Shown here: positions 33,431-36,868 of the stretch, piece by piece | How positions within the stretch are numbered: position 1 is the first letter of the stretch | How the letters are laid out: each line of letters opens with the position of its first letter | Virus record (IMG/VR): IMGVR_UViG_3300011858_000030 | Coordinates: 21,695 to 85,694 of that record | Reading direction: 5' to 3' (one strand) | DNA from: a virus | Taxonomy: Duplodnaviria; Caudoviricetes | DNA: 64,000 nucleotides | The notes under the pieces: model-generated | Databases searched by the model: none | Told to the model about the DNA's origin: nothing | The model's input: the letters and a program-made list of their open reading frames with translations, nothing else | Program-made: the position numbers and the translations under genes

Positions 33431-33613
33431 TTATTGGATGGTTTTGTGTAACGCTCTGACGATGGTTTTTACCTGGCGCACGTTGCCGCGGCCTTGTGAC
33501 TTGATGACCTTGCGATCGCCTACCTGCTTCATCATCGCTTCGATGCCGCCGATCTTAACGTGCGTGCATGAGATATCGCCAAGTCGCTTTGATTCGAAAT
33601 AAATGCCGCTCAT
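33431..33613 (-). CDS. Hypothetical protein, 60 aa
   Basis: GAGG RBS; operon strand. Confidence 0.6.
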   Translation of the reverse strand: MSGIYFESKRLGDISCTHVKIGGIEAMMKQVGDRKVIKSQGRGNVRQVKTIVRALHKTIQ

Positions 33614-33673
33614 ATGGGCCTCATTGGTGGATTTCAGGCAATAAAAAAGGCCGCCGGAGCGACCTTGTTGTAT

Positions 33674-34366
33674 TTACATCAGCCCCAATTCTCGGAGCTT
33701 ATTCAGATTGTGTTCTATCTTTCGCTTGCCATATTCGCCGTGAAGCCTTTCGCATTCGGCGTTATAGGCGAGGACGGCAAGCTTTAAATCATGGAAATAG
33801 CCAATGTGGTGGTACTCCCCACCTCGAGCAATCTTAGCCACCCATTTTGACACTTTTCTGCTGTCTGTAGGGGTGTGCCAAGATACTCCAATAAATCCAG
33901 ATTGCGAGTCGGCTCTTAAGCTCTCGTTTAGCTTGTTAATCGTCTTGGTGGCGGGTCGTAAATTCTCAATGCGGTTATCAGAGCGCACGCCGTTAATATG
34001 ATCGATAAAATCTGGCTCATCGCCGTTGAACATCTTCCAGACAATTCGATGGGCCATTACCAGTGCGCCATCCACCTTGACGCGGATGTAGCCATCTTTG
34101 CGCTTATAGCCACAAACTGAGCCACTCTTGACGCAGCCGCGAGATATCTTGGCTATCAGGTCAGACCCTAACACCTCAAAAAGCTCATTCAGCCTATCCT
34201 TTGATGGCAGAGGGACAACGCCATCTTTGCTGGCTGGAAGACATTTTGTTTTGTTAAGCAAAGAGGCGCACGCCTTACAGCTTCCGCGATATCCATCAGT
34301 GCATTTTTTGCTTCTGTAAAACTCAGATAACGGCTTGGTCTCACCGCATTTCTTGCATGATTTCAT
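33674..34366 (-). CDS. HNH homing endonuclease with N-terminal Cys-rich and C-terminal AP2-like domains
   Basis: CKKC..C..CKAC, HRIVW, IDHINGVRSDNRIENLR and GFIGVSW motifs. Confidence 0.92.
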   Translation of the reverse strand: MKSCKKCGETKPLSEFYRSKKCTDGYRGSCKACASLLNKTKCLPASKDGVVPLPSKDRLNELFEVLGSDLIAKISRGCVKSGSVCGYKRKDGYIRVKVDGALVMAHRIVWKMFNGDEPDFIDHINGVRSDNRIENLRPATKTINKLNESLRADSQSGFIGVSWHTPTDSRKVSKWVAKIARGGEYHHIGYFHDLKLAVLAYNAECERLHGEYGKRKIEHNLNKLRELGLM

Positions 34367-34465
34367 TCTAAACCTCGTAGCAGGTTTCGTAGATGATGGG
34401 TGCGGCAGGGGTGTCTACGTTCACCCTCTTCGACTGGCCGGTCTAGCCGCACGTCAATTTTACCA
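34367..34465 (-). ncRNA. Structured cis-regulatory leader, copy A, with extended -10 (TGG-TAAAAT)
   Basis: Three-way junction that covaries with copy B at 42886-42970. Confidence 0.6.
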
Positions 34466-34467
34466 CT

Positions 34468-35457
34468 TCACTTTTCGTCAGGCTTCCATTTCTTGCGCTC
34501 GGCAGCCAATTTATCAGCCAATCCCTCGTTATAAATCTGACCATCATCTGTCAGTAATACTGGGATTTGGCTGCAATAACAGTTGGCGCGGTTCTTCATT
34601 TCACTGTAGAAATCGCGCACCTCTTCGGTGGTGTAGACCTTGCCGTGACGGCTGGCGTGCCAGGTGCGAGTCGTCGGCTTGAGCGCTGACAGCCACAACA
34701 ATCCGGTATTCAACCCTAGCCGGTCAGCAGCCCAGTCGGTTTCGTTCCATTGCGCCTGGCGCAGCGCGCCTACCTGCTCTGTCTGAGCAATGGCCTTAGC
34801 CTTCGACATGCTCACATCGAGGCGTTTACTAATAACCTGGGCGGTATCTCTTGGTGACACCCCGCGAGCCACCGCATCGGTGATGATGTTGGTCAGATCG
34901 CCGCGGGCAGTGTCGCTGATGACCTTCCAGTCGCTGAACGTTGTCAGCCTGGCCGCCGCAACCTGATTAAGGTGACCGGGACTGCTTAAAAGCTGCTGTA
35001 GCGTTGTCTGACTGGCGTACACCTGCGACTGCTGCGAGAGGTTGTTGAAGGCCTCCAGCGTGCCGCGCTGCGCTTCTGCGACGACGTAATCCATCGCCCA
35101 GAGGTTTTGCTCGCCACCCTCCAGCAGATGGTCATCGAGAATAGCCTGTACCGCCTCCAGCAGGTCAGCCAGTTCCTGCGCCGACATGTCGTAGATGAAC
35201 TTGCCGGCGTTTACCTGGTAGAGCCGCACATCCTCGCCGCGGTCATGGCAAAGGAAGTGCCAGTTATGGCTATTTACATCACGCTCCCGCCCGGTCAGGC
35301 GCTGGTCGAACAGAGCTTTCAGCGCGCGCTTGATGCCGAGATACCGATCCTCTATATCCCGGTACATCGCGGTTACCTGCTTTGCCGATCGGGTCGGGTC
35401 AACCTTGCTACGCGGAACTATCGGCAGGCCCACCTTTGCCGTCTGTTCTGGTGTCAT
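34468..35457 (-). CDS. Minor head protein (Mu F/SPP1 gp7 family)
   Basis: IAQTEQ, TTRTWHASRHG and RANCYCS motifs. Confidence 0.88.
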   Translation of the reverse strand: MTPEQTAKVGLPIVPRSKVDPTRSAKQVTAMYRDIEDRYLGIKRALKALFDQRLTGRERDVNSHNWHFLCHDRGEDVRLYQVNAGKFIYDMSAQELADLLEAVQAILDDHLLEGGEQNLWAMDYVVAEAQRGTLEAFNNLSQQSQVYASQTTLQQLLSSPGHLNQVAAARLTTFSDWKVISDTARGDLTNIITDAVARGVSPRDTAQVISKRLDVSMSKAKAIAQTEQVGALRQAQWNETDWAADRLGLNTGLLWLSALKPTTRTWHASRHGKVYTTEEVRDFYSEMKNRANCYCSQIPVLLTDDGQIYNEGLADKLAAERKKWKPDEK

Positions 35458-36868
35458 CGGCCAGTGGATCATCGGTAGTCACCTTCTCGTCCGGTTTTGG
35501 TGGTTCTTTTTGCTCCGGTAGCGGGTCAAGCCCCACAACTTCGCGCAGCTCATTGGCTGTAATCGGCGGCTCACCGCCATAGAAGCCAGTGGTTTTCTGC
35601 ACAATGTCGGCAAGTTTCGAAGCGTTCTCGATCTTCTCTTTCTCGCCTGGCGCCAGCAGGTCGCTCCATGAGATGGTGACCTCGCCTTTGGTCGGCGGGT
35701 CGATAATCCCAAGCGTCCAGAAACGCTCCAACAACGCGGTGATCCGGTCTGTCAGGAAGCCATTACGCCGCGTGTTGCGTCGGATAGCCCAGTCCGTTTT
35801 ATCCTCATCGCTCGCCAGTCTCCCGGTCTGCTGACCGAACAGGATGGTGAACGGGATCTGTACGGAGGCGGCCAGTTCATTCGCCGTGACTTCCCATGTC
35901 GGCCCCGGGTCTCCGGGTGTAACGCTCAGAACATGCATCTGACCGGCCTGCATTACGGCCGCCGCATCAGTACCACGGTTAAGCTTGTTGACCTTGTCGC
36001 CCATCGCTTCGCCGAGATCGGCATAGCCAGCCTTCTTAGCCTGTTCTGCCAGCGTGGCCATGTCGGTTTCTTTGCTGAACTCGACGGCGATCTGTCGACT
36101 GGCGTTCTTCAGGAAACCCTCAGCGCCACCACCAGATACTTTCTCAAGGTCGAGGCCCTTGTTGTAGCCAGCTTCCAGCAGCGGGATGCCGGACAGCACA
36201 TTGTCGTCTTCAGAACCTTCGCAGAACAGGATTACGCGGCTCGTGTGTACCGGTTCGCCGCGCAGCGGGCCGACAAAAGGCTCATCACCGACCGGCTGCT
36301 CGTTGAAGTTGAACATCTTCGGCTGGCCGAACGTTTCAGACTGACGGTCGTTATCCCATTCGGCGACTGTTAACTGCGGCTCCCATACCGGGATAAGTTT
36401 TACAAGCGCTGACTCTCCGAGTCGTTTTACTAAAGCAGTATCGACCTCCTGATCCCAGTTCCGATTGTCTTTCACCTGAAGAAGCAGCGCTGAATAACGC
36501 CCTACCATATTGCGGCGATCTGCATCCTTCACCTTCGGCCACAACTTCTTCATGAACTTGGTGACTTTCTTTTCCCAGGCGTTTGTATTCTTCGCCTCCT
36601 GAGCTTCATCACCGTCAACAATGACCGGATAGTCTTGCCAGCAACCATCCAGCAGACGATGCACCACAGCGAAGCCAGCGGCGTTGCGGCGGTACATGTT
36701 GTAGAAGTCGTTGAAGGTGATCGTGCGCGGGTAGCCAAATTCCTGGTAAAGCGTCGGGCGCTTCGTGTTCCCACCACCGATGCCGATGGCATTCAGGTAA
36801 TTTGCTCGCCTCATTTCAGTGGCGAGGTTGTTCACAGCCAATTGAAGGCCGTTATCTTGTTCGCTCAC
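35408..36868 (-). CDS. Portal protein (DUF1073-type)
   Basis: After terL; IPFTILFGQQTGRLASDED motif. Confidence 0.88.
   Translation of the reverse strand: MSEQDNGLQLAVNNLATEMRRANYLNAIGIGGGNTKRPTLYQEFGYPRTITFNDFYNMYRRNAAGFAVVHRLLDGCWQDYPVIVDGDEAQEAKNTNAWEKKVTKFMKKLWPKVKDADRRNMVGRYSALLLQVKDNRNWDQEVDTALVKRLGESALVKLIPVWEPQLTVAEWDNDRQSETFGQPKMFNFNEQPVGDEPFVGPLRGEPVHTSRVILFCEGSEDDNVLSGIPLLEAGYNKGLDLEKVSGGGAEGFLKNASRQIAVEFSKETDMATLAEQAKKAGYADLGEAMGDKVNKLNRGTDAAAVMQAGQMHVLSVTPGDPGPTWEVTANELAASVQIPFTILFGQQTGRLASDEDKTDWAIRRNTRRNGFLTDRITALLERFWTLGIIDPPTKGEVTISWSDLLAPGEKEKIENASKLADIVQKTTGFYGGEPPITANELREVVGLDPLPEQKEPPKPDEKVTTDDPLADDTRTDGKGGPADSSA

Follow-up and report, generated by a model that had tools for sequence, protein, structure and literature searches.

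The two RNA leaders that precede unrelated accessory genes on the minus strand of the window, by which we mean the whole 64,000-nucleotide stretch of viral DNA analyzed here, part of an 85.7-kb IMG/VR provirus, are, as judged from their sequence, members of the int-alpA RNA family (Rfam RF02996) and not a new family. What is new relative to RF02996 is that the unit extends into a covarying hairpin, with a second target for the loop of stem P3 (L3), the SD and the ATG. Judging from this anatomy, we consider it reasonably probable that the leader throttles or switches translation in cis and moves together with accessory genes. The same anatomy agrees with control of the start of translation in cis and with the known need to restrain homing-type nucleases in phage operons (PMC2988022).

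Copy A begins behind an extended -10 box, TGG-TAAAAT (34457-34465, minus strand, as are all features described below), which ends 4 nt before stem P1, so that the transcript would be expected to start at the first P1 bases. Its three-way junction (34400-34452), identified by cmscan, minimum-energy fold and covariation, is composed of P1 (GUGCGGC, 34452-34446, with GCCGCAC, 34406-34400), P2 (GAC/GUC with the loop CGGCCA, 34443-34432), the junction strand GAAGA and P3 (GGGUG/CACCC with the loop AACGUAGA, 34426-34409), with L3 at 34414-34421. Downstream of the junction lies site 1, UCUACG (34393-34388), whose pairing with CGUAGA of L3 would give a pseudoknot, the "decoy" state. This is followed by the hairpin P4 (AAACCU/AGGUUU, 34370-34387, from the minimum-energy fold and covariation), the loop of which, GCUACG (34376-34381), contains site 2, CUACG (34380-34376), with AGGU directly after it. 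The SD, (G)AGG, straddles the P4 loop and 3' arm, and 3 nt separate the stem from the ATG (34366-34364) of the cargo gene. This gene (33674-34366) encodes an HNH endonuclease of 230 aa (Pfam HNH_3, E 3.2e-16; phrog_99 HNH endonuclease, E 4.1e-57) and is closed by the terminator AAGGTCGC-TCCG-GCGGCCTT and a T run (about 33645-33666).

Copy B is built in the same way. Its three-way junction (42918-42970; cmscan and minimum-energy fold) consists of P1 (GCUGUGGC, 42970-42963, with GCCAUAGC, 42925-42918), P2 (GAU/AUC with the loop AGGCCA, 42949-42960) and P3 (GCGGU/ACCGC with the loop AUCGUC, 42943-42928), with L3 at 42933-42938. Site 1, UGACGA (42911-42906), pairs with UCGUCA of L3, and site 2, GACGA (42897-42893, GGU next), is contained in the loop AAGACGA of P4 (CAACU/GGUUG, 42888-42904). 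The SD, GAGG, again straddles the P4 loop and 3' arm, and here 2 nt lie between the stem and the ATG (42885-42883). The cargo is a 74-aa ORF (42661-42885) with no Pfam or PHROG match, which recurs downstream of this leader in other proviruses (L085, L093), and its terminator reads AGGTCGC-TTAG-GCGGCCT, then a T run (about 42624-42644). The sequence-only reading had placed both copies on the minus strand at these positions and had drawn the same folds, and the sequence and the minimum-energy fold, which for each copy is a three-way junction plus a downstream hairpin, agree with it. The 20-nt core that the two leaders share, GGCTAGANNGGCCANTCGAA, is found at these two places and nowhere else in the window, against 0.13 occurrences expected by chance.

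The family assignment draws on a cmscan search, in which copy B (42904-42970) matches int-alpA with 44.3 bits and passes the curated cut-off of 35.8, and copy A (34387-34453) covers the full model (positions 1-71) with 32.7 bits (E 2.7e-5), 3 bits under the cut-off. P1, P2 and P3 of RF02996 and their helix lengths are those of both leaders, and its junction strands UA, GAAAA and CU are present in both copies, with GAAGA replacing GAAAA in copy A. In the RF02996 consensus the P3 loop carries CCuU and the tail AgGG, and this pairing corresponds to the first of the two loop-to-tail pairings proposed in the sequence-only reading. That reading had implied that the motif was novel, while allowing that Rfam might already hold it; Rfam does, and the match had been missed there, as had the fourth hairpin, P4, whose loop is site 2.

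The Rfam model, of 71 positions, ends at site 1 and is typed as an sRNA. In the leader sequences inspected, no terminator was seen between the junction and the ORF, as a stand-alone sRNA gene would have; instead, the SD-bearing hairpin and the ATG follow within about 30-35 nt of the junction, and the cassette terminators come after the cargo ORFs. Among viral records the Rfam model picks up too few of the copy-A-type leaders and misses many copies of this subfamily; we therefore built a model of our own (R1). The int-alpA motif is reportedly among the candidate RNAs of Weinberg et al. 2017, NAR 45:10811. It is not named in the main text of that paper, and our literature search found no functional study of it; the mentions were list entries only, or meant the gene order int-alpA. 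Other families gave no match: c4 was absent at the gathering threshold over the window and at E values up to 10 around copy A, PK-repZ and PK-repBA had no Rfam match, and a tRNA-like reading was rejected after ARAGORN found nothing.

One loop with two covarying partners

Relatives were collected by searching viral records for the 20-mer core, which is present in >116 of them and gave 81 distinct versions of the leader; covariation was counted in 30 diverse versions. In these 30 relatives P1, P2 and P3 are paired in 98-100%, with many compensatory double changes, and the pairings of L3 with site 1 and site 2 in 73-74%, alignment slippage notwithstanding, against about 37% in slid controls. The covariation score is 0.43 versus 0.16 in shuffles (0/500), and RNAalifold recovers P1-P3 independently. 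The covariation of the three stems, read originally from two copies, is thus borne out. P3 also includes G-U pairs, which assign the selection to the RNA strand.

The loop pairings were further examined by an alignment-free count over 17 independent L3 types. A leader's own L3 forms on average 5.2 bp with its site 1 and 4.9 bp with its site 2, compared with 2.9 and 3.2 bp, respectively, for L3 sequences taken from other types (permutation test, 0/20000), and the column-based pairing counts agree with this result. The complementarity of L3 to site 1 and site 2 holds in about 20 independent sequence types. These results support the earlier proposal that the P3 loop has two downstream pairing partners, the second being located at the ribosome-binding site (RBS).

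Site 1 starts 5-9 nt after P1 and adjoins P4, and P4 is a stem of 5-8 bp in 70 of 74 relatives, the 5-8-nt loop of which is site 2. The stem covaries, the SD lies in its loop and 3' arm, and in 64/74 relatives the 3' arm ends 0-4 nt before the ATG. This arrangement of site 1 and a P4-loop site 2 gives L3 two mutually exclusive partners in the same slot between P3 and P4. The predicted duplex energy is -7.5 kcal/mol for L3:site 1 versus -6.3 kcal/mol for L3:site 2, a slight advantage for the decoy, and site 1 is the stronger partner in 64 of the 74; taken by themselves, these energies would make the RBS-bound form the less populated state. Classical int-alpA copies from Enterobacteriaceae have the same tail, with CCUU in L3, AAGG in site 1 and AAGG again in the P4 loop. 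Exceptional sequestration of the RBS by secondary structure alone was looked for among 20 prophage genes and not seen, the folding energies of the two RBS windows being unexceptional at -9.3 (6th) and -5.9 (mid-rank).

Cassettes in a lambdoid late region

The closest cultured relatives of the provirus are Klebsiella and Enterobacter phages, and both leaders are embedded among genes of a lambdoid late region encoded by the minus strand. Its order is gene Q, an HNH gene, an isrJ-like RNA, copy B, the 74-aa ORF, holin and lysozyme genes and the portal gene, followed by a Mu-F-like head morphogenesis gene (34468-35472), copy A, its HNH gene and a DUF2213 gene. A 490-aa ORF (36881-38353) with no Pfam family match lies upstream of the portal gene. 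A 60-aa ORF (33431-33613), missing in a related Klebsiella phage, separates the terminator of cassette A from the DUF2213 gene.

Immediately upstream of copy B lies a tR'-like terminator, and further upstream lies the Q antiterminator gene (43546-44229). A second HNH_3/AP2 endonuclease gene (43070-43546), this one lacking an int-alpA leader, is located between Q and a pR'-like promoter and starts with an ATG that shares bases with the stop codon of Q (UAAUG). The promoter (TTGCAA-17 nt-TATATT, 43058-43086), to which the label pR' is applied by virtue of its position downstream of Q and the HNH gene, is followed by an isrJ-like short RNA (42978-43054; cmscan, isrJ RF01393, 60.8 bits). This RNA ends in a strong, 11-bp terminator hairpin (42979-43004, terminator scan) directly upstream of copy B; in phage phi80, the sequence that matches the 3' part of the RNA is annotated as a terminator. 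The isrJ homolog probably represents the short transcript running from pR' to tR' in this prophage. The corresponding gene order in the Salmonella prophage Gifsy-1 is antQ-isrK-orf45-anrP-isrJ. We also observed that the 5' part of the isrJ-like RNA (43030-43045) reads AUAUCGUCGCCAUAGC and resembles L3 of leader B (AUCGUC) together with the 3' strand of its P1 (GCCAUAGC), about 100 nt downstream (42918-42938). A mechanism drawn from this similarity was dropped because other phages with copy-B-type leaders show no covariation between the two.

Among copy-A-type leaders, 48 of 58 have a -10 box matching at least 5 of 6 positions of TATAAT in the same place, ending 4-6 nt before P1, and 31 of these boxes carry TGn, so that the extended -10 noticed at copy A is a conserved feature of its type. 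A good -10 box is found in only 2 of 23 copy-B-type leaders, which follow strong terminators downstream of pR'-like promoters. An ATG-led ORF lies downstream in 75 of the 81 unique viral versions. Copies with their own -10 box mostly precede genes for HNH or other homing-type nucleases, and copy-B-type leaders precede small orphan genes. Of 60 downstream genes, 25 are HNH_3; others are of the GIY-YIG, T5orf172 and endonuclease VII types, and the small ones are unmatched. Outside this subfamily the cargo is mostly without known function. Defense genes were considered as cargo and rejected, as PADLOC finds homing endonucleases only. The leader had been called portable from its two occurrences in front of unrelated genes, and the survey extends this to many unrelated genes in >100 phage records.

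The other end of the cassette is also conserved. A terminator of the form AGGTCGC-N4-GCGGCC (3' arm GCGGCCTTTT) with a T run closes both cassettes and occurs exactly twice in the window, where none would be expected. Variants of it close many cassettes elsewhere, whatever the cargo, and a terminator of any kind follows the gene in 43 of 62 cases. With leader core and terminator both conserved, constant ends flank variable genes. In the Klebsiella phage ST101-KPC2phi6.1 (L206, 880-1104) the copy-A slot, between the head-morphogenesis and DUF2213 genes, holds a different gene, for a 74-aa hypothetical protein, which has the same terminator and no leader; the slot is thus a site of cargo exchange. 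In Salmonella siphoviruses, copy-A-type leaders are located downstream of the head-morphogenesis gene.

A candidate translational switch and its alternatives

The mechanism that we propose would work as follows. The three-way junction would hold L3 beside the 3' tail, where L3 could be parked on site 1, the decoy, as a pseudoknot, or could engage site 2 in the P4 loop by a kissing contact, whereby the ribosome-binding site would become buried; the balance of the two L3 pairings, together with P4 itself, would set or gate ribosome starts on the cargo gene. The cargo so controlled would here be a homing-type HNH nuclease (copy A) and a small orphan protein (copy B). Leader and cargo move as one unit, which in copy-A-type cassettes comprises an extended -10 promoter, leader, gene and terminator, and in copy-B-type cassettes has no promoter and stands behind the late-operon terminator tR'. 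We infer translation as the controlled step, with one of the two pairings as the putative "on" state and some factor that would shift the balance. A bolder form of this proposal, possible though in our estimation somewhat unlikely, is that int-alpA as a whole is not an sRNA but the front of a widespread, self-contained expression cassette that serves selfish and accessory genes from enterobacterial phages to Planctomycetia, and in which a latent anti-RBS loop parked on a decoy is released by a signal onto the loop of the RBS; processing of the RNA, a physical cue or a host factor could each serve as this signal.

If this were true, it would provide the first mechanism for the orphan Rfam motif int-alpA and a new design of translational switch, in which one loop has two covarying partners on a constant helical stack. 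As the two copies and about a hundred relatives make evident, the catalogued part of int-alpA is just the front of a longer unit, which runs to the RBS of the next gene and in which two partners compete for one loop; the orphan motif becomes a hypothesis open to tests by reporter fusions. The leader may also explain how phages tolerate nuclease and add-on genes in essential late operons, and, as it marks cassette boundaries, it is of help in annotating morons and homing-type genes in prophages.

Pairing of a hairpin loop with a short sequence adjacent to the RBS is found in the repZ/repA pseudoknot of IncI/IncB plasmids and in c4 of phage P1, where the short pairing sequences covary and set specificity; those systems differ in their reliance on a leader peptide or on an antisense RNA made separately. 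Homing endonuclease genes of the T4 type are kept in check by RNA folds that mask the RBS (PMC2988022). The I-TevI, segB and mobE genes resemble the present cargo in being selfish nuclease genes within phage operons, each preceded closely by a promoter of its own and with an RNA structure that covers the RBS and limits translation, but there the structures are simple hairpins, relieved by a late promoter that starts inside the hairpin (PMC2988022), whereas the promoter of the int-alpA leader lies upstream of the whole fold and its anti-RBS loop has a decoy partner; the hairpins have no sequence or family relation to int-alpA. IsrK of the Salmonella prophage Gifsy-1, located just downstream of Q, switches the translation of an accessory toxic gene (PMC4825925). 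It shares with our leaders the use of alternative pairings near the RBS and, with copy B, the slot after Q, and the window contains an isrJ homolog; however, it is an unrelated RNA, whose short isoform acts in trans on the read-through isoform and activates translation (PMC4825925).

Alternative functions can be written for the same parts, and each of them accounts for some of the evidence. The junction and the L3:site 1 pseudoknot might cap the 5' end of the mRNA against 5'-end-dependent decay and so act as a stabilizer. Flavivirus nuclease-resistant RNAs have a junction-plus-pseudoknot fold, which the order of parts in the leader (junction, L3-tail pseudoknot, hairpin) resembles, and the -10 placement in 48 of the 58 copy-A-type leaders predicts a transcript that starts at the first P1 bases. 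We nevertheless regard a stabilizer as unlikely: it leaves the second covarying L3 target, at the RBS, unexplained, the promoterless copy-B-type leaders (good -10 in 2 of 23) are internal to read-through transcripts, and cmscan gives no Rfam match to a flavivirus nuclease-resistant RNA or to any other structured family. We give an equally low probability to a processed antisense RNA acting in trans, in which L3 of a cut junction would bind the P4 loop of sibling transcripts, with site 1 silencing L3 in the uncut precursor, as can be compared with phage P1 c4 and the IsrK isoforms of Gifsy-1. The sRNA type given by Rfam would suit it, as would the Gifsy-1 short RNA after Q that acts in trans on its own read-through isoform (PMC4825925), but we saw neither a terminator nor a known processing site between junction and ORF, a site for either L3 was found at no further RBS of the window, and there is no match to the c4 family. 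Genomes with two copies mostly have different L3 sequences, which would favor trans action. We also considered an "address", whereby leaders in one genome must differ in L3. Among 8 two-copy records, however, 7 pairs differ and 1, in provirus G203, is the same, and as about 79% of pairs would differ by chance the address idea is unsupported.

A sensor, in which the junction or P2 would respond to a small molecule, a host protein or temperature and shift L3 between its sites, is in our view quite unlikely, although one loop with two alternative partners has the form of a switch. The 20-nt junction/P2 stretch is identical from enterobacterial phages to Planctomycetia, alphaproteobacteria and Acidobacteriota, and stays constant while P1, P3, L3 and both sites vary. 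The 20-mer was itself the search pattern, however, which makes its conservation partly a sampling effect, and the unbiased Rfam search shows several other P2 loops. The junction strands are just 2, 5 and 2 nt long, and the cargo genes have no common metabolic theme. P2 loops that are self-complementary (GGCC, GAUC, AGCU) were also considered as dimerization sites, an idea that was dropped because the commonest classical loop, GACG, is not self-complementary. It is very improbable that the unit acts at the level of DNA, with leader and terminator as portable homology arms for cassette swaps and the RNA fold incidental. The same leader core and the same terminator do occur at both cassettes and at many elsewhere, and in the related Klebsiella phage the copy-A slot is filled by other cargo, followed by the same terminator; yet the compensatory changes, the strand-specific G-U pairs and the covariation of L3, site 1 and site 2 show selection on RNA. 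A role in DNA exchange could coexist with one in RNA.

Wider occurrence of the motif

The occurrence of int-alpA in mobile elements is seen in the IMG/VR provirus of the window, in the viral records that carry the core and in the Enterobacteriaceae, where the Rfam model finds the motif in 18 of 151 genomes. It is also present in the Planctomycetia, alphaproteobacterial and Acidobacteriota genomes noted above. Whole-genome scans with the 20-mer have to be read with its 17 specified bases in mind, which lead to about 70 chance matches. The matches in Solirubrobacterales (L121, L126, L139 and others), a conserved stretch just upstream of nusG in MAGs, have neither P1 nor P3; we therefore rejected them as chance matches and not the int-alpA motif.

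Upstream of classical int-alpA copies in Enterobacteriaceae, at a distance of about 10-40 nt, we observed two direct GTAGAC repeats and an AGAATA-like box (loci L179, L189, L190, L198, L200 and L203), which may be the operator and promoter of a satellite or island.
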